Shown here: positions 1,512 to 45,075 of the stretch, piece by piece
How positions within the stretch are numbered: position 1 is the first letter of the stretch
Layout: each line of letters starts with the position of its first letter
From: a virus
IMG/VR virus record: IMGVR_UViG_3300045988_034500
DNA length: 45,075 nt
Strand: one strand, 5' to 3'
Program-made: the position numbers and the translations under genes
Notes under the pieces: model-generated
Told to the model about the DNA's origin: nothing
The model's database searches: none
The model's input: only the letters and a program-made list of their open reading frames with translations

Positions 1512-1916
1512 ATGAATATTCAAGTCTATTGGGATGGTAATTCTGGAGTTATTGAACACAATAGCGATAGACTTAATCTGACTTCTAAGCCTAATATTAG
1601 TTCCGTTAATTTTGATGTTCTTAATTTCAGTGAGGACGACAATATTGGAATTAAGGTTTATCAGAATAAGACGATGGAATTAACCCCTGAAGAAATTACT
1701 ACGATTAAAGCGTTTGCTAAAACTAATGCCAAGCCTGTGAATACTCTTGATTCTGCAATTGGACAGCACAACGTTGCCCCTGATGCGCATCACGATATCC
1801 GTGTGAAGATCGAAGAGCTGTCTGCTGCAATTGCTCAGTTGAGTGCTTTGTATAGTCAGGCTATGGCTATGTCCGTAATGGAGGAGCCTAATGAGTGCGA
1901 AGACCAGTACGCTTGA
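1512..1916 (+). CDS. hypothetical protein
   Basis: 134-aa ORF. Overlaps the next gene by 26 nt. Confidence 0.45.
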   Translation: MNIQVYWDGNSGVIEHNSDRLNLTSKPNISSVNFDVLNFSEDDNIGIKVYQNKTMELTPEEITTIKAFAKTNAKPVNTLDSAIGQHNVAPDAHHDIRVKIEELSAAIAQLSALYSQAMAMSVMEEPNECEDQYA

Positions 1917-2178
1917 GAAACTTCATGAGATGCTTGCTGAGCTGTTTATCGAGGATATCAAGCTCTGTAGAGACGAGGGTATTCCTATGGCTGCTTCCGA
2001 CAAGGGTGTGATTGTTTCGTTCCTGAAGAACAATAACATCACTGCCGATCCTGATCTCGAAGATATGCAGAGACTCGATGAAGAGTTCAAGCGGCAGGCA
2101 GAGATTGAGAGAGCCGCTAGAGCCAAGAGTATGCTTGAACAGAAGGGAGATGATCGCTTTGACGATCTGCTGAATTGA
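1891..2178 (+). CDS. putative small terminase subunit (from position and size only)
   Basis: 95-aa ORF with a GGAGG RBS. Its stop overlaps the terL start (TGATG). T7 gp18 occupies the same position immediately upstream of the large terminase. Confidence 0.35.
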   Translation: MSAKTSTLEKLHEMLAELFIEDIKLCRDEGIPMAASDKGVIVSFLKNNNITADPDLEDMQRLDEEFKRQAEIERAARAKSMLEQKGDDRFDDLLN

Positions 2179-2432
2179 TGGAAGAGCTGACCCTACAACG
2201 AATCAAGCTACTGAAAGAACGTGTTAATCGTTATAGTAATGATCCTACGAAGATTCCGCAAGATGAGAGACGAGAACTCTCGCTGATGTTCGCTGTAGCT
2301 TTCAAGGACTTTAAGGACTTCTGTGAGATTGGTATGCGATTCCTTGGCTTCGGTATTACCGAGATGCAGTTGAGCATCGCAGAGTACGTCCAGAATGGCC
2401 CTAAGAAGAGAATGGTCCAAGCACAGAGAGGT
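2178..2432 (+). CDS. terL: large terminase subunit, exon 1 (N-terminal ATPase region up to the Walker A motif)
   Basis: The protein ends ...NGPKKRMVQAQRG, which aligns to T7 gp19 ...NGDNKKFILQAFRG immediately before the GIGKS Walker A motif. The open frame stops at TAG 2433-2435. Confidence 0.7.
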
Positions 2433-2662
2433 TAGTCTAAGGCTGAGCCTCGTAATCTCGTGAATACGGGGGAACTCTCGTAAGAGACAATCCCGTGCCA
2501 AGACTCGAAAGAGTAAGGTGTAACGACTATCCTATATGGAGTAGGGGCAAGTGTCCCGAAGCGCGAGACTCCGCATGTCGGAGAAGATATAGTCTGATCT
2601 TGTAGGCGACTACAAGCTGTCGAAAGACGGGGGAGGATTAACGACCCTCCCTGAACACAATG
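2433..2662 (+). mobile_element. group I intron (ORF-less, about 230 nt) interrupting terL at the Walker A motif
   Basis: Exon 1 ends in U (2432), which can form the U:G pair with G2448, and GAGG pairs with CCUC at 2449-2452 (P1). The intron ends in G2662. A gap-free alignment to T7 gp19 ([15 protein letters not shown] versus RG+EAKTTITALYAVW) places the 3' splice site here. The core region 2490-2545 is about 75 percent identical to the nrdD intron at 20143-20198. Confidence 0.65.
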
Positions 2663-4267
2663 GAAGCTAAGACGACCATTACAGCGCTGTACGCTGTGTG
2701 GAGATTGATCCAAGATCCTACTTGTCGTATCTTGATCGTCTCTGCAGGTGAAGATCAGTCCAATGACATCGCAGTGCTTATCATTCGATTGATCGAGCAG
2801 TGGTCTCTGATGTGTTGGCTTAGAGCAGATACCTCTAGAGGTGATAGATCCTCGTATGAGCATTATGACGTGAACAGGGATCTCAGACGAGTTGAGAAGT
2901 CTGCCAGTGTGTCGAGTGTTGGTATTAAAGCTAACCTCCCCGGTCGAAGAGCTGACCTCATCATTGCTGACGACGTTGAGTCGATTACGAACTCCACTAC
3001 GCAGGTTATGCGTGATGACCTTCTGAATAGAACGAAGGAGTTCACTGCTATCTGTACGCATGGACATATCCTGTACCTCGGTACCCCTCAGACTAGAGAG
3101 AGCGTGTACAAAACTCTGCTCAGTCGAGGCTTTGATATCCGTATCTGGCCAGGTAGATATCCTGAACCTGATAGGTTGGACAGGTACCTTCCAGGCACGC
3201 TAGCTCCAGAGATCGAAGAGGCTATCAGGAAGGACCCCTCGCTTCAGAGTGGTGGTGGTCTAGACGGTACCAGAGGGAAGCCTACTGATACGGGTAGATA
3301 CACGGAAGAGGATCTTCAGGATAAAGAGCTTGACTACGGTCCTGAAGGCTTTGACCTGCAGTACATGCTCGATACTACGCTCTCTGATGAAGCTAGAACG
3401 AAGATCAAGCTCAGTGATCTTATGATCGCCAATACTGGGTACATAGAAGCCCCTGAGACGTTCATGTACAGCGCAGAGCCTAGACTCCTCGTCAAGGATC
3501 CTGAGATTGCTACACCTCCGATGCACGGCAATCGAATGTACTACACGGCAAGAGCATCGGAGAACTTTATCAAGTACGATCATAAGGTTATGGTCGTAGA
3601 CCCTGCAGGTAATGGCGGTGATGAACTGGCTTACTGCTGTGGAGGTGCATGTAACTCTTACGTGCATATCTTTAGCGTAGGCGGGTTCATTGGCGGCACT
3701 ACCGAAAAGAACATCAACGATATTATTGATCTGTGCTTGGAGTTCGACATTAAAGCGATTAAAGTCGAATCCAACATGGGACATGGTACTGTTGAATCAC
3801 TGTTCATCGCTGAACTTCAGAAGCGAAAGATTAACGATATTGGTGTTGAAGGGTTCTATAACACAATCCAGAAGGAGAAGCGTATCATTGATACCGTGTC
3901 TCCTGTAACTCGTAGACACAAGATGGTGTTCCATGAGAGAGCCATCAGAGACGATTGGAAGTGTTGTATCAGGTACACCCCTGAGAAGAGAACCATCGTG
4001 AGTTGTCTGTACCAGATGGCTAACATCACGTATGATAGACAGTCCTTGGCTAAGGATGACCGTGTGGATGCTCTGGCAGGCGTTGTACAACACCTCAGTG
4101 ATTGTATCGCAAAGGATGACGATAAAGCGAATGAACTTAGAGAACAAGAACAAGCAATGGAGTTCTACAGAAATCCTATGGGATACAAGAACTACGGAGG
4201 TAAGAAATACAACGAATGGAACAACTTGCACAAGTACAGCAGGGTAACTCGGAAGCATCGTTGGTAG
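2663..4267 (+). CDS. terL: large terminase subunit, exon 2 (rest of ATPase domain plus nuclease domain)
   Basis: EAKTTITALYAVWRLIQDPTCRILIVSAGED... and LIIADDVE (Walker B) align with T7 gp19 [29 protein letters not shown]... and IIIADDVE. YLGTPQT is conserved. Confidence 0.85.
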   Translation, partial: EAKTTITALYAVWRLIQDPTCRILIVSAGEDQSNDIAVLIIRLIEQWSLMCWLRADTSRGDRSSYEHYDVNRDLRRVEKSASVSSVGIKANLPGRRADLIIADDVESITNSTTQVMRDDLLNRTKEFTAICTHGHILYLGTPQTRESVYKTLLSRGFDIRIWPGRYPEPDRLDRYLPGTLAPEIEEAIRKDPSLQSGGGLDGTRGKPTDTGRYTEEDLQDKELDYGPEGFDLQYMLDTTLSDEARTKIKLSDLMIANTGYIEAPETFMYSAEPRLLVKDPEIATPPMHGNRMYYTARASENFIKYDHKVMVVDPAGNGGDELAYCCGGACNSYVHIFSVGGFIGGTTEKNINDIIDLCLEFDIKAIKVESNMGHGTVESLFIAELQKRKINDIGVEGFYNTIQKEKRIIDTVSPVTRRHKMVFHERAIRDDWKCCIRYTPEKRTIVSCLYQMANITYDRQSLAKDDRVDALAGVVQHLSDCIAKDDDKANELREQEQAMEFYRNPMGYKNYGGKKYNEWNNLHKYSRVTRKHRW

Positions 4268-9306: not shown

Positions 9307-9381
9307 CTGCAGGTAGCTCAACGGATAGAGCATAGGTCTTCTAAACCTACGATAGGGGTTCAATTCCCCTCCTGCGGTCCA
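9307..9381 (+). tRNA. tRNA-Arg (anticodon TCT), CCA encoded
   Basis: Folded by hand: 7-bp acceptor stem with one G-U pair; D-stem GCTC/GAGC with an 8-nt loop; anticodon stem TAGGT/ACCTA with loop CTTCTAA; 4-nt variable loop; T-stem AGGGG/CCCCT with loop TTCAATT; discriminator T then CCA. Confidence 0.8.
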
Positions 9382-17616: not shown

Positions 17617-18047
17617 GAAAGATTAGCAGGTCCCAGCTCAGAGCGTGGGCTATCGGACACATCAAGACTAAGCAGGGAGGACTGTGTCCTCTCTGTGGCA
17701 AGCCCATCTCTCTTCAGGTGATGGGTAATAAATCCGACTACGTGGTTGACCATGACCACGAAACGGGAGAAATTAGGGGCGTGCTGCATCGCTCATGCAA
17801 TGCAGCTGAAGGTAAGGTAAGCAATGCAGCCGCCCGTTGGGGTGCCAAAAGCACCAAGTACAGCGACATCATCCCATGGTTGCACAGAATGCTTGATTAC
17901 CTAGAGAACAATGAGGGTACTGGGATTATCTATCCAGACCATAAGACTCCTGAAGAACGTGAAGAATTCAGGAAACAACGCGCTAGAAAGGCGCAGGCAT
18001 TGCGCAAAGCAAGACAGGCTTTGCGTGCTAAGGAGAAACATGATTAA
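17586..18047 (+). CDS. endonuclease VII-like Holliday-junction resolvase
   Basis: GGLCPLCGKPI...VVDHDHETGEIRGVLHRSCNAAEGK matches T4 gp49 GKCLICQREL...HLDHDHELNGPKAGKVRGLLCNLCNAAEGQ. Possible internal TTG or GTG start at 17601 or 17613. Confidence 0.8.
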   Translation: MLQKEVEEGLRKISRSQLRAWAIGHIKTKQGGLCPLCGKPISLQVMGNKSDYVVDHDHETGEIRGVLHRSCNAAEGKVSNAAARWGAKSTKYSDIIPWLHRMLDYLENNEGTGIIYPDHKTPEEREEFRKQRARKAQALRKARQALRAKEKHD

Positions 18048-20088
18048 GGTAATTAAGAAAGACGGCACTGTCGAACCGTTCGATATGGAAAAAATCTTCA
18101 AGGCTATCGACAAGGCCAGCCAACGTGCTAACTGCAACATCCGTAGAGGCGACCATGAGCTTCTGGAGTCGTACATCACTTTTGAATGCGAGTCCAAGGG
18201 CAAGGACATTCCTACGTCTGAGATGCACAGCATCGTAATCAAGGCGCTGTATGCTTGTGACTACAAGGCTATTGGTGACGCATACAAGGAGTTCAGAGAT
18301 TACAAGAACACGTATGCCAAGGCCTTTGAAAAGGTGAAGGATGATGCGGACACTGTTCTTCTTCTCGGAGACAGGGAGAATGCTAACTTTGATTCTTCGC
18401 TTATCAGTACGAAGGGTTCGCTCATCAAGGGGTACCTCACGAAGGAACTGTACAAGCAGTTCTATCTGAACAAGGAAGAACTCCAAGCTACGAAGGAAGG
18501 CACGATCTATATCCATGATCTTCGAGACATGATTTTCAACAGCATCAACTGCTGTCTGTTCGACATGGGTAATGTCCTCAAGGGTGGATTCAGCATGTCC
18601 AATGTGGACTACACTGAACCTACTAGCGTGCTCAGTGCGCTTCAGGTTATCGGTGACATCACGCTCGTCGCTACTGCACAGCAGTTCGGTGGGTTCACCA
18701 TTCCGAGTATTGATAAGACGCTTCTCCCGTATGCCAGAAAGACTTACAATAACGCCTTCAAGAAATACTTCGATACTTGTAATCTGGAGTATGACGAAGC
18801 AGACTCCATGGCTCTTGGTGACCTCAAGCGCGAACTTGAACAGGGCTTCCAGTCTCTTGAACTGAAGCTCAACACTGTGCCGTGTTCCAGAGGTGACTTC
18901 GCCTTTACCACTCTTACGTTCGGTGAATGGAGCAATGACCTCCCTGATCTCGACAAGGAAATCCTCCAGATGGTGTGTGAAACCATCCTTGAGATTCGCA
19001 TGAAGGGGCATGGTCCGAAGGGTAAGCAGGTTGTGTTTCCCAAGCTCGTGTATCTCTATGACTGGGAACAGCACAGTGGTGCTGAACATGCTGAGGTGTT
19101 CGACAAGGCTGTTGAATGCTCTAGCAAGTGCATGTACCCTGACTACCTTGCAATCAACTCTGACTATGGCTCGGTATCTGAAACCTACCGAGCATCGAAC
19201 AAGCAGTGCGTGATTCATCCGATGGGTTGCAGGGCGTACCTCACGCCTTGGTACGACATTGAAACCAATGAATACGTGTCTGTTGGCCGATGCAACATCG
19301 GCGCTGTGTCTCTGAATCTTCCTCTTATCTACAAGAAGGATCCTGAGAAGTTCTATGAGAACCTCACTGAGAACCTTGAACTTATTCGTAAGTTCTTCCA
19401 GAAGAGATATGAAGCAGTTGCTGAAACGAAGGCATGCACGAACCCCATGGCATTCTGTCAGGGTGGATTCTACAAGGGGAATCTCAATCCTGATGATAAG
19501 ATCGGTGATCTTACGCAGTACATGACTGCTAGTTTTGGTGTTACCGCCCTCTCAGAATTTGTTGAACTTCATGGTCTGAAGCTGAACTCTGCTCTTGGTA
19601 GAGACCTTGCCATCAAGGTTGTTGACTTCATCAATAAGAAGATCAATGAGTTCAAGAAGGAGGATGGGCACCTGTATGCTCTTTACGGTACTCCTGCAGA
19701 GTCCCTGTGTGGTACTCAGATGCAGCAGTATCATGACTATTGCAAAGCACACGGAGTTAAAGATGAATTCGAAGGAAGAAACTACTTCACGAACTCGTTC
19801 CACATCCATGTCGCAGAAGACATCTCGCCCGTCGAGAAACAGACGTGGGAATTCCCTCTGTTCCATAAGGTTCAGGGTGGGCACATCCAGTACATCAGAA
19901 TTGATAACCCTGAGAATCTGAAGGCCGTTAAGGCTCTGATTATCAGGGGCATGTACAACGGTTTCTATCAAGGTGTGAACTTTGATGCTGCAGTTTGTGA
20001 AGACTGTGGCGAGCACTCCACTAATGTAGGCAAGCACTGCCCGCATTGTGGTTCCAACAACATCTCTGTCATCAGTCGTGTCTGTGGG
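18040..20088 (+). CDS. nrdD: anaerobic ribonucleotide reductase NrdD, exon 1 (ATP cone, core, Zn ribbon, RVCG of the glycyl-radical motif); exact 3' end uncertain by about 3 nt
   Basis: ATG at 18040 with an AAGGAG RBS and an ATP-cone start MIKVIKKDGTVEPFDMEKIF. Zn ribbon CEDCGEHSTNVGKHCPHCGS, then SRVCG, then an in-frame stop, so the conserved Tyr and C-terminal tail are missing from this exon. Confidence 0.8.
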
Positions 20089-20719
20089 TTAACTTAATGG
20101 CTCACGTTAAATTCTCCCTAAACGGGGAACATCCAGAACGGACAATCCCGTGCTAACCCGTGTGACTACGGAAATGTGTAACGACTATATAGGAGAACTA
20201 TGTTAAAAGAAATTCCAGACTATCCAAGCTACTACGCCGATGAACTCGGCAACATCTATGGTACTAAGAACCAAAAGAAAATGTATAGGCTAACGCCCTA
20301 CAGTAAGTTAGGATACTTGCGTGTCAGAATGCGACTGAATGGTCGCTGTGTAGACAAGTCTGTTGCTTACTTAGTCGCTAGAGCGTTCGTAAGTGGATAC
20401 AAGGAAGATCTAGAAGTCAACCATATAAACAAGATCAGAGACGACAATCGTCCTGAAAACCTTGAATGGATGACTCACAAGGAGAACGCAAGATACTCCT
20501 TGTGCAGGAAACTCAAAGTAACTACAAAGGCAGGTACAGTGCTGTACTATGACTCTTGTGGTAACTTCTCTAGAGATACAGGTATTGCTACCAATAATCT
20601 CGCTAGATGGTATATGCAAAAGAATAATGGCTATATCAAGAAGTTTGAGTTGACTGTCGAATACATAGAAGAGATAGTCTGAACTGCATAGGAATATGCA
20701 GATTAACAAAATTGATCTT
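20089..20719 (+). mobile_element. group I intron in nrdD carrying an HNH homing endonuclease ORF (boundaries approximate)
   Basis: The 5' segment TAACTTAATGGCT...ACGGGGAAC...GACAATCCCGTGCTAA...GTGTAACGACTATATAGGAG parallels the terL intron (TAGTCTAAGGCT...ACGGGGGAAC...GACAATCCCGTGCCAA...GTGTAACGACTATCCTATATGGAG). The 3' segment GAAGAGATAGTCTGA...TGATCTTG parallels terL intron 2583-2602. The intron interrupts the RVCG|Y glycyl-radical motif. Confidence 0.65.
20200..20682 (+). CDS. HNH homing endonuclease (intron-encoded)
   Basis: TAGGAG RBS. HNH motif EVNHINKIRDDNRPENLEWMTHKEN. Located inside the nrdD intron. Confidence 0.75.
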   Translation: MLKEIPDYPSYYADELGNIYGTKNQKKMYRLTPYSKLGYLRVRMRLNGRCVDKSVAYLVARAFVSGYKEDLEVNHINKIRDDNRPENLEWMTHKENARYSLCRKLKVTTKAGTVLYYDSCGNFSRDTGIATNNLARWYMQKNNGYIKKFELTVEYIEEIV

Positions 20720-20797
20720 GGTTACTCTAATGTCAATGGACATTCCAGAATGAATGATGCCAAGATGGCAGAGATCAAAGATAGGAAATCAATGTGA
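20720..20797 (+). CDS. nrdD: NrdD exon 2 (GYSNVNGHSRMNDAKMAEIKDRKSM, the tail after the glycyl radical)
   Basis: A short frame beginning GGT TAC directly after ...GATCTTG. It restores the expected G-Y after RVC(G), and its tail length (about 25 aa after the Gly) is typical of NrdD. The exact junction cannot satisfy both the U(-1) rule and the omega-G rule simultaneously. Confidence 0.55.
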   Translation, partial: GYSNVNGHSRMNDAKMAEIKDRKSM

Positions 20798-21199: not shown

Positions 21200-21526
21200 A
21201 TGACTACTCCTAAGAAGTACACTAGCGTTACCCGTATTGGTGTTACCGCTGAATTCGAAGCCTATCCCACCTGTAAGGGACACGTGGACTTTGCAACCTT
21301 CCATTTCCCGAGCATCCGATCCTTCGTTGCTTGGGTGAATGACCATAACAGCAACATTGCTTACGTTGTGGTTAAGGATCCTAAGAAGACTTCGGCTGAT
21401 CTTTACACGGAATGTTGGTCCCGAACGTTCATCTCGCCTCATATCAAGCGAGGTTGCACGTGCCATGTGACCGTCAGGCTTGACTGTGGAGCTGTTGGAC
21501 AGCTTACGCTCTATAAGAGCGAATAA
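21200..21526 (+). CDS. hypothetical protein
   Basis: 108-aa ORF with an AAGGAAAG RBS. Confidence 0.5.
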   Translation: MTTPKKYTSVTRIGVTAEFEAYPTCKGHVDFATFHFPSIRSFVAWVNDHNSNIAYVVVKDPKKTSADLYTECWSRTFISPHIKRGCTCHVTVRLDCGAVGQLTLYKSE

Positions 21527-22029
21527 TGAATTACTCTGGACTCAACCTATGCGATACCGCTAACGGACCAGGGGTCCGCGTATCTCTGTTCGTTAGCGGG
21601 TGCTCCTTGCATTGCAAGGGGTGTTTCAACCAAGAGGCATGGGATAAGAACTACGGAATGCCTTTCGATTCCTACGCCCTCACAAAGGTTCTAGAAGCCT
21701 TAAAGGAGCCCTGTATTGAGGGCTTAAGCATCCTTGGGGGTGACCCCATGGAGGAGTACAATCGACGCGATGTGGGGCTTGTATGCGCCTCTGTGAAGGC
21801 CCTGTATCCAGACAAGAGTATTTGGCTTTGGACAGGTCGTAAGTTCGACGAGATCAAATACTACGGTCATATCTTGGATTACGTAGATGTGCTCATCTGT
21901 AATCCGTTTATCGAACATCTTAAATGTAAAGGAAAATACTATGGAAGTTCAAACCAACGAGCTTATCGGAAATCTCCAGACGGAACTTGGAATTTGGTTC
22001 AAGAGGACTCATCAGAATGTCCCTGTTAA
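21526..22029 (+). CDS. nrdG: anaerobic ribonucleotide reductase activating protein NrdG (radical SAM)
   Basis: N-terminal CSLHCKGC (CxxxCxxC) cluster. Size of about 167 aa. Adjacent to nrdD. Confidence 0.75.
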   Translation: MNYSGLNLCDTANGPGVRVSLFVSGCSLHCKGCFNQEAWDKNYGMPFDSYALTKVLEALKEPCIEGLSILGGDPMEEYNRRDVGLVCASVKALYPDKSIWLWTGRKFDEIKYYGHILDYVDVLICNPFIEHLKCKGKYYGSSNQRAYRKSPDGTWNLVQEDSSECPC

Positions 22030-22345
22030 GGGACACCTGAAGCAACTGTATCTCACGTGCATCATTGAGGAGTTCAATGAACTCGTTCAAGAGAAGTGCG
22101 GTACCCCTAACGACATGAAGGAGCTGTGTGATCTTATCTGGGTGTGCGTGCAGTATGCCAATGCTTGTGGCTATGACCTTGAAGCAGGCATGAATGAACT
22201 GCTTAAGGAGTATTCCAGTAAGTTCTATGATGCGCATGGTAACTACAATCCTACCTTCCGATCGGATGGTAAGCTCCTGAAGGGAGCAGGTTTCAAGAAG
22301 GCAGATTTCAACAAGTTCTTCGAGGATAGACATGAAGATCAGTGA
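21941..22345 (+). CDS. MazG-like nucleoside triphosphate pyrophosphohydrolase (putative)
   Basis: All-alpha pattern with acidic EExxE clusters (IIEEFNELVQE, DLEAGMNELLKE). AAAGGAAAA RBS before the ATG at 21941. Confidence 0.4.
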   Translation: MEVQTNELIGNLQTELGIWFKRTHQNVPVKGHLKQLYLTCIIEEFNELVQEKCGTPNDMKELCDLIWVCVQYANACGYDLEAGMNELLKEYSSKFYDAHGNYNPTFRSDGKLLKGAGFKKADFNKFFEDRHEDQ

Positions 22346-22988
22346 CATTTCTGTTGAGTACATGGATCACATGGGCAGTGATTGCACTGTTGTGAATGCC
22401 GCACGTGTCTCCTTTAACAAGGAGATCAAGGCTATGAGCCTCAGTGATGTGAAACTCCTGCAGTATCTTGCCAAGCACAGGCACTGGTCTCCGTTTGCTC
22501 ATACGAGCATTCAGTTCAGATGCAAGGCGCCTATCTTCCTTGCTCGACAGCTTGTGAAGCATCAGGTTGGTGGTGTGTGGAATGAAGTGTCTCGTCGATA
22601 CGTAGACTCGGCGCCTGAGTTCTACATCCCGAAGGTTGTGCATAATTATCCTCAGAATGCTAAACAGGGTTGCGGTGAAGAACACATGTACTCTGAATTC
22701 TACGTAGGAAATATTATTGAATTGACGGCAATGTCAGAGTCCGAGTACAACAAACTCATTGCAGAAGGTATTGCTCCTGAAGAAGCACGCATGATTCTTC
22801 CTCTGAACACCATGACCGAGTGGATTTGGACTGGGTCTCTGATGTTCTGGTACCGAGTGTGGAGTCTTAGGCATGATCCTCATGCACAGTCTGCTGCACG
22901 AGAATTCGCTGATCTTCTGTACAAGGCTATCCCTGACGACTTCAAGGAAAGCATGCGGAGTTTGGTTGATTATTATGGAGATGTGTAA
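22332..22988 (+). CDS. thyX: flavin-dependent thymidylate synthase ThyX-like
   Basis: FAHTSIQFRCKAPIFLARQLVKHQVGGVWNEVSRRY matches the ThyX core (..ReL.RHR-x7/8-S.RY), but with KHQ in place of RHR. Confidence 0.6.
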   Translation: MKISDISVEYMDHMGSDCTVVNAARVSFNKEIKAMSLSDVKLLQYLAKHRHWSPFAHTSIQFRCKAPIFLARQLVKHQVGGVWNEVSRRYVDSAPEFYIPKVVHNYPQNAKQGCGEEHMYSEFYVGNIIELTAMSESEYNKLIAEGIAPEEARMILPLNTMTEWIWTGSLMFWYRVWSLRHDPHAQSAAREFADLLYKAIPDDFKESMRSLVDYYGDV

Positions 22989-44808: not shown

Positions 44809-45075
44809 ATGCTGAACAAGGAGCTTCTATTGGCTACAGAGAGTCAAATAGCAGGGCATATTAAGCTAACGGTCGGAGAATACTATGGCACTTTTGGGTA
44901 CTTTGAAGCCCGGGCAGGTTCTATAAATAGAATCCCAACATGGAACAAAGGAGAGAACCCTATTAAAATGCTTTCGCTACTTACTGATCCCGAAGGGCAT
45001 AACACTATTATGGATTTTTACCGACAGGTAAAAGTAAATGCTGATAGTATAACAATGACTGTTGTTGAAAAAAAG
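44809..45075 (+). CDS. hypothetical protein, 5' part (continues as 2..211 across the circular junction; full length about 131 aa)
   Basis: GGGAGG RBS 7 nt upstream of the ATG at 44809. Open to the window end. Confidence 0.55.
   Translation, partial: MLNKELLLATESQIAGHIKLTVGEYYGTFGYFEARAGSINRIPTWNKGENPIKMLSLLTDPEGHNTIMDFYRQVKVNADSITMTVVEKK

Follow-up and report, generated by a model that had tools for sequence, protein, structure and literature searches.

The window examined here, the whole 45,075-nucleotide stretch of IMG/VR virus record IMGVR_UViG_3300045988_034500, is a ~45-kb T7-like (Autographiviridae-like) phage genome from human gut metagenomes, with a GC content of 46.9%. Its first and last 85 bp repeat exactly (1–85 = 44991–45075), which points either to a complete genome of ~44,990 bp assembled as a circle or to a short direct repeat at the termini. 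The large terminase gene, terL, is interrupted within the codons of the Walker A motif by a 230-nt insert that we interpret as a functional self-splicing group I intron, with a probability of roughly 0.92. The genes and features at the locus are as follows (ORF, open reading frame):

1891–2178, plus strand: small terminase subunit gene (Pfam PF11123, DNA_Packaging_2, E = 6.4e-16; also in the ORF list)
2178–2432, plus strand: terL exon 1, 85 codons, ending CAA GCA CAG AGA GGT = QAQRG (A82-Q-R-G85), the first half of Walker A
2433–2662, plus strand: group I intron, 230 nt, td-like (IA2-like), without an ORF and without P2 (Rfam RF00028)
2663–4267, plus strand: terL exon 2, 534 codons plus the stop codon at 4265–4267, starting GAA GCT AAG ACG ACC = EAKTT

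The TGA of the small terminase gene overlaps the terL start codon at 2178 (TGATG), and the insert opens with an in-frame TAG (2433–2435) and closes with ...ACACAAUG, ending in the omega-G at 2662. Joining 2178–2432 to 2663–4267 yields a 619-aa TerL that reads QAQRG:EAKTT at the junction (here and below, the colon marks the insertion point)—the same length as P0001, an intron-less homologue encoded at locus L003 that starts MEELT... and is colinear with terL exon 1. Over its full length, the joined protein matches solved T7-type large terminases (PDB 8dgc, E = 2.2e-80; 4bij, E = 8.8e-68), and 2634 phage records match the terminase at a coverage of at least 80%. In this comparison with T7 gp19 and T7-type terminases, the IIADDVE of Walker B is conserved, as is the nuclease domain; exon 2 holds this T7-type RNaseH-like nuclease domain (Pfam PF22530, E = 3.8e-33). 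Gene callers place the start of exon 2 at ATG 2660, giving a 535-aa protein that begins MEAKTT... (P0002, P0014). This ATG (2660–2662) is the conserved ...AAUG 3' terminus of td-like introns and no start codon, and the GGAGG nearest to it lies 23 nt upstream, within the P9.2 stem. When the entire gene was compared with GenBank phages by megablast, no close relative appeared, and the only match was a 34–37-nt intron tail in Pakpunavirus.

The ends of the insert can be read from an allele that lacks it. In L003, whose terL gene is ~93% identical to that of the window at the nucleotide level (99% for the protein, P0001), the sequence reads ...CAGCGAGGT followed directly by GAAGCTAAGACGACC..., that is, ...CAG CGA GGT:GAA GCT AAG ACG..., and the empty site is ...CAGCGAGGTGAAGCTAAGACG...; by BLAST, L003 is contiguous from 2700 to 2701 where the window skips from 2432 to 2663. 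Because a one-base shift of either end loses GGT GAA, the boundaries at 2433–2662 are unambiguous, with U(-1) at T2432 and the omega-G at G2662. Pattern and protein look-ups showed the same precise absence, with a continuous frame at RG:EAK, in L003 and also in the more distant L005 and L006. The predicted ligated junction of the window's transcript is ...AGAGAGGT followed by GAAGCTAAG..., and its AGA-GGT:GAA-GCT combination (junction k-mer GCACAGAGAGGTGAAGCTAAGACG) was absent from every intron-less DNA allele examined.

The insert also has the structure expected of a group I ribozyme. Rfam model RF00028 matches 2380–2616 across the full model (1–253) with 56.3 bits (gathering score, 50) and E = 9.3e-12. 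The unconstrained minimum free energy (MFE) fold of 2423–2672 has -84.3 kcal/mol (z = -2.7) and recovers P1 and P3 to P9.2 except for the P7 pseudoknot. The elements, all on the plus strand (+), are:

2428–2432 GAGGU / 2447–2451 GCCUC (+): P1, with the U2432.G2447 wobble at the splice site; MFE fold
AGUC 2434–2437 / GGCU 2441–2444 (+): intronic extension of P1; MFE fold
2665–2668 (exon 2) / 2441–2444 (+): possible 4-bp P10; by inspection only
2456–2594 (+): catalytic core overall; folds, pair counts, Rfam alignment and T4 td sequence blocks
2456–2462/2562–2568 (+): P3; MFE and centroid folds
2466–2471/2491–2496 (+): P4; MFE and centroid folds
2476–2479/2484–2487 (+): P5, with a GUAA loop
2497–2499/2517–2519 (+): P6; MFE and centroid folds
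2503–2506/2511–2514 (+): P6a, a 12-nt hairpin with a GAAA loop
2525–2529/2590–2594 (+): P7, the expected pseudoknot, not in the MFE fold; pair counts and td blocks
2530–2532/2538–2540 (+): P7.1; fold, co-varies across the family
2544–2548/2553–2557 (+): P7.2; fold, co-varies across the family
2569–2573/2579–2583 (+): P8; MFE and centroid folds
2599–2662 (+): 3' peripheral domain, comprising P9, P9.1, P9.2 and the tail UGAACACAAUG, which ends in omega-G 2662
2599–2605/2610–2616 (+): P9, with a GCGA loop
2617–2621/2626–2630 (+): P9.1, with a GAAA loop
2631–2636/2646–2651 (+): P9.2, with the loop AUUAACGAC

Comparison among relatives indicates that these helices have been maintained. Pair counts were made on hand-written structure strings for two sets of introns—first, five terL introns, and second, nine family members (the window, L004, PaoP5, T4 td and five IMG/VR loci). 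Among the five terL introns, four pairs carry compensatory double changes (one in P1, two in P3 and one in P8), and every cell pairs save one in P9.1; A2637-C2645 was left out, being no P9.2 pair and unpaired in all. Across the nine members, 98.8% of the cells in P7, P7.1, P7.2, P9 and P9.2 are paired, compared with 37–50% when the 3' partners are slid, both sides have changed in 17 of the 27 pairs, and none of 500 shuffles matched the observed pairing values. In P1, the pair A2429-U2450 becomes U-A in relatives whose intron contains a homing endonuclease gene (HEG), where the helix is GUGGU/GCCAC. The guide tracks the exon: AGA-GGU in the window and CGA-GGU in the second ORF-less copy (L019) are found with GCCUC, and CGU-GGU is found with GCCAC in all HEG-positive copies. 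A synonymous change of an Arg codon is thus matched in the guide, which speaks directly for selection acting on P1 pairing and therefore on splicing.

At the terL splice site, the window phage uses AGA for the Arg codon in P1, and its relatives use CGA or CGT. The window also encodes a tRNA-Arg(TCT), at 9307–9381, which decodes AGA.

Subgroup IA2 is recognised (partly after PMC3984707) by two helices, P7.1 and P7.2, that lie between P7 and P3', by an extension formed of P9.1 and P9.2, and by homology to td. We found all of these in the window's intron, the last as BLAST homology to the td intron of phage T4; the presence of both pairs of helices therefore marks it as td-like and IA2-type. The T4 td intron, which is of class IA2 and carries I-TevI, shares 69% identity over the window intron's 3' 142 nt through the omega-G and 83% over 36 nt of P4–P6, with P7 and J8/7 near-identical, the same order of helices (including P7.1/P7.2 and P9-P9.1-P9.2) and the 3' end motif ...GAUUAACGACC...CUGAACAYAAUG. 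It differs in its host gene, thymidylate synthase rather than terL, and in having a P2, whereas the window's intron has none; its P6a consists of four base pairs capped by a GAAA loop and holds no ORF. The HEG-bearing relatives of the window's intron keep their endonuclease ORF in the P6a loop, as td does I-TevI, although their enzyme is of the HNH_3 and td's of the GIY-YIG type. Together, the Rfam score, the exact intron-less allele, the covariation both in P1, P3 and P8 and among more distant family members, and the homology to td support an earlier reading of the DNA made without database searches (below, the sequence-only reading), which had proposed that a group I intron splits terL within the Walker A codons and had named an Rfam comparison as a check, now answered by a score above gathering. 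The details that it gave—a 230-nt insert at 2433–2662 with U(-1), an omega-G and a P1 of GAGGU and GCCUC—were all correct, as judged from the L003 allele and the fold.

Beyond the empty sites described above, the insertion point is occupied by introns of two lengths. An identical 230-nt, ORF-less intron lies in L019, an independent 45.9-kb human gut contig in which the flanking exons differ, and a version of 744–751 nt occupies the same site in L004, L007, L009 (= L012), L020 and L021. The long version carries a 165-aa homing endonuclease ORF (HNH_3, phrog_59) in the P6a loop; in L020, its ribozyme is that of the window save for P6 and one base of the guide sequence. Most of the contigs in these three states share 89–96% identity with the window across aligned DNA (~74% for L004). 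Protein clusters at 90% identity hold 199 members for the uninterrupted form and 62 for a form consisting of exon 2 only, and the 62 members of the latter imply that the interrupted allele persists in populations. No endonuclease ORF was found in the window's copy; as relatives at the same site encode one, the intron family would be mobile but the window's copy not autonomous. The P6 of the window (GCCAAG-stem-AAGGUG) fits the family and Rfam consensus and not the HEG-positive P6, and this consensus type is compatible both with loss of the endonuclease in the window's lineage and with its never having been gained. The codons just downstream of the site are GCA AAA in seven of the eight intron-bearing copies and GCT AAG in the window and the empty sites, a pattern that may reflect co-conversion tracts. 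Rfam gave no match at E ≤ 0.01 for the HEG-containing intron of L004, presumably owing to the ~500-nt ORF in P6a, and this intron was instead identified by alignment to that of the window.

One of the occupied contigs, L007 (ENA ERZ28627037 scaffold_1604), has runs of N at ~2745–2858 and within the intron ORF, with the result that gene callers report its TerL as truncated and its HNH ORF as split, both of them assembly artefacts. A second insertion at Walker B, suggested by P0010 (a 430-aa TerL starting MESITNS), was rejected on the same grounds, as it traces to the N run in L007 exon 2, a scaffolding artefact.

From these observations, we propose the following sequence of events. In the terL pre-mRNA, P1 would pair the exon's GAGGU with the intron guide GCCUC, and an exogenous guanosine bound in P7 would attack after U2432. 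The omega-G would then take over the binding site, and the freed exon 1 would attack after G2662, joining GGT to GAA in a continuous terL mRNA that encodes the 619-aa TerL. On unspliced RNA, ribosomes would stop at TAG 2433, the first intron codon, and an intact P-loop, and thus packaging, would depend on splicing. Splicing of the window's copy and its catalysis in vivo are predicted here from sequence and structure. The element would have reached the site by homing, with its HNH-bearing siblings homing into empty sites by means of that enzyme, and the window's copy would represent the endonuclease-free state of the homing cycle.

Could the insertion instead be an artefact or chimera in a metagenomic contig? 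The assembly is of the metagenome type and has the 85-bp end overlap, yet we give this explanation almost no weight, given that at least eight independent contigs, drawn from different samples and collections, have an intron at this position (L004, L007, L009, L012, L019, L020, L021 and the window), that the boundaries are base-exact and that the inserted sequence makes up a whole ribozyme. It is also very improbable, if somewhat less so, that the intron is decaying and has lost the ability to splice. Under this explanation, either the genome would be defective or TerL would be assembled non-covalently from an 85-aa and a 535-aa piece, the latter begun at ATG 2660; the absence of both the endonuclease ORF and P2 fits such decay, and gene callers do report the 535-aa ORF (P0002). 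However, the catalytic core is intact and near-identical to that of T4 td, the guide is matched to the window allele's own Arg codon, and the recurrence of the identical intron in a second assembly with diverged exons, like the 62 exon-2-only sequences, argues for a viable, circulating allele. The putative internal start fares no better—ATG 2660 is the family's AAUG 3' end, with the sole GGAGG 23 nt upstream and buried in the P9.2 stem—and a two-piece protein would divide the P-loop between Gly85 and Glu86.

Some features nonetheless weigh against a functional intron that arrived by homing: the intron is without P2, its P10, with 4 bp and an offset of 2 nt, is weak, and the GCT AAG in the exon 2 flank of the window would imply recombination very close to the intron, such that simple recent homing would be an incomplete account. 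A further explanation adds to splicing rather than replacing it, in that the intron might splice and also be retained for the benefit of the phage, either as a resistance allele or as a GTP- or translation-sensitive gate on the packaging ATPase. HEG-positive, ORF-less and empty alleles do coexist in phages of 90–96% identity; an intron-encoded HNH endonuclease mediates competition between the co-infecting phages PhiPA3 and PhiKZ (PMC11620839), and an 'on-switch' has been proposed for introns in genes for ribonucleotide reductase, polymerase and terminase (PMC11878797). On the other hand, a selfish homing cycle suffices for the sequence data, and the Goddard-Burt model (cited in PMC3984707) predicts an ORF-less intermediate; we regard a benefit as unlikely, although clearly less so than decay. 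The resistance version of the idea, which we offer tentatively and with similarly low confidence, holds that an ORF-less intron is kept since an occupied Walker A target would be uncuttable by the sibling HNH enzyme, at no cost of an endonuclease. If true, the three-state polymorphism would amount to a standing arms race over terL in the human-gut phage population.

The intron sits between Gly85 and Glu86 of the motif A82-Q-R-G-E-A87-K88-T89, of which exon 2 supplies E86-A87-K88-T89 as the second half of Walker A. The spliced TerL departs from the canonical Walker A pattern [AG]xxxxGK[ST] by having Ala87 before Lys88; T7 has the canonical A-F-R-G-I-G-K-S where the window's clade has A-Q-R-G-E-A-K-T/S. 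Alignment with T7 gp19 (NC_001604) confirms the claim of the sequence-only reading that the join leaves no gap, with 18 residues of the T7 protein running unbroken against QAQRGEAKTTITALYAVW across the junction. The same reading was right that the spliced P-loop is non-canonical, with Ala before Lys, but this is not specific to splicing, since R[GS][EQ]AK[ST] is the clade consensus and occurs in 117 of the 117 full-length proteins among the top 120 matches (with RS in three). Carriers of an AK[ST] P-loop include the uninterrupted genes of the cultured Erwinia phages Zoomie and Loshitsa2 and of Escherichia phage PAS7, and the TerL of Klebsiella phage Henu2_3 has RGEAKS. We therefore rejected the idea that the unusual P-loop is made by, or linked to, the intron, as intron-less relatives share the motif; the Ala-Lys P-loop characterises a large clade of viable phages.

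The sequence-only reading had further considered introns in terminases to be rare, which overstates the case. Terminases are among the typical targets of phage group I introns (PMC3984707), and splicing of the TerL intron of SIOphi (Bastillevirinae) has been shown both in vitro and in vivo (PMC11878797). Bastillevirinae such as SIOphi and other phages of Gram-positive bacteria likewise have TerL genes split by group I introns, some of them accompanied by HNH endonucleases; their TerL lineage, which is not T7-type, and their hosts differ from those of the window phage. Closer to the window is Klebsiella phage Henu2_3 (PQ394119.1 33512–38620; L023), a cultured KP34-like podophage whose TerL belongs to the same family and has two introns, at L023 2385–2630 and 3339–3557 (Rfam 64.4 and 59.6 bits). 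Both are placed at catalytic motifs, after Walker B (...RADLLIPDD) and in the nuclease domain, as opposed to Walker A in the window phage, and the intron in the nuclease domain is followed by a GIY-YIG ORF; in the deposited record, the introns are unannotated and TerL appears as three separate coding sequences (CDSs). The two-piece TerL of Klebsiella phage K51PH129C1 (H34), also considered as a possible intron carrier, was rejected, in that its CDSs (303–1322 and 1261–2286) overlap and the arrangement looks like a frameshift. The Walker A codons of T7-type TerL are a new insertion site for an element of a well-known kind; we found no report of an intron there in the searchable literature, where absence is no proof.

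Other members of the same intron family occur outside terminases, in the DNA polymerase A genes of Pakpunavirus (Pseudomonas phages such as PaoP5, whose intron scores 71.9 bits with Rfam) and in uncultured IMG/VR phages. In the Pakpunavirus introns, the P9.2 hairpin and 3' tail are 97–100% identical to the window's over 34–37 nt, whereas identity falls to ~70% elsewhere in the ribozyme, and their P7.1 and P9.1 are larger. This P9.2 and tail block (GGGAGGAUUAACGACCCUCCCUGAACAYAAUG; window 2631–2662) was found in 11 IMG/VR loci (L008–L018), as well as at L001 2501–2534 and L025 1210–1250, and is recognisable in T4 td. Evidence for splicing of the Pakpunavirus polymerase intron was not found in PMC10914365, which covers only LUZ24 and phiKZ. 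We also observed that the heptamer UAACGAC occurs twice in the window's intron, in J6/7-P7 (2521–2527) and in the P9.2 loop (2639–2645). Separately, Klebsiella phage RCIP0099 (OR532893.1; L024) has an unannotated group I intron at 1949–2157 (70.6 bits) that aligns with the window's intron at 72% identity across 87% of its length; the two 'hypothetical protein' CDSs that flank it resemble the halves of one gene, possibly for a DNA polymerase.

The terL intron is genuine but rather ordinary as an example of a mobile intron lodged in a conserved catalytic site, and existing knowledge of intron mechanism and terminase chemistry is unchanged by it. Its practical consequence lies in annotation: gene callers split the interrupted terminase into an orphan of 85–86 aa and a protein of 535 aa, which distorts TerL-based taxonomy and protein clustering, and recognition of the intron restores the 619-aa TerL. 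The Walker A codons of T7-type terminases join the conserved catalytic sites colonised by td-like introns, and the three-state polymorphism in near-identical gut phages provides a natural system for the study of homing, endonuclease loss and competition between phages.

The window contains a second td-like group I intron, which splits the anaerobic ribonucleotide reductase gene, nrdD, within the glycyl-radical motif:

17911–20089: nrdD exon 1
20090–20714: group I intron, td-like (Rfam 40.1 bits, below the gathering score)
20715–20797: nrdD exon 2

The low score of this intron is due to its large insert. By inspection, its P1 is GUGGGU/GCUCAC, with the 5' splice site after T20089 and the omega-G at G20714, and the predicted spliced NrdD ends in ...RVCG followed by YLGYSNVNGHSRMNDAKMAEIKDRKSM and the stop codon. 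The intron carries a 160-aa HNH_3 ORF (20200–20682) whose HNH core is only 36% identical to that of the endonuclease in the terL introns of relatives. The sequence-only reading had noted a core common to the terL and nrdD introns, and indeed both are td-like, with the same P4–P6 and P7 sequence blocks. Downstream of nrdD, a nucleotide-metabolism cluster was recognised by eye at 21526–22988, comprising what we take to be an NrdG-type radical-SAM activase (21526–22029), presumably a MazG-like pyrophosphatase (21887–22345) and, by the same presumption, a ThyX-type thymidylate synthase (22332–22988).

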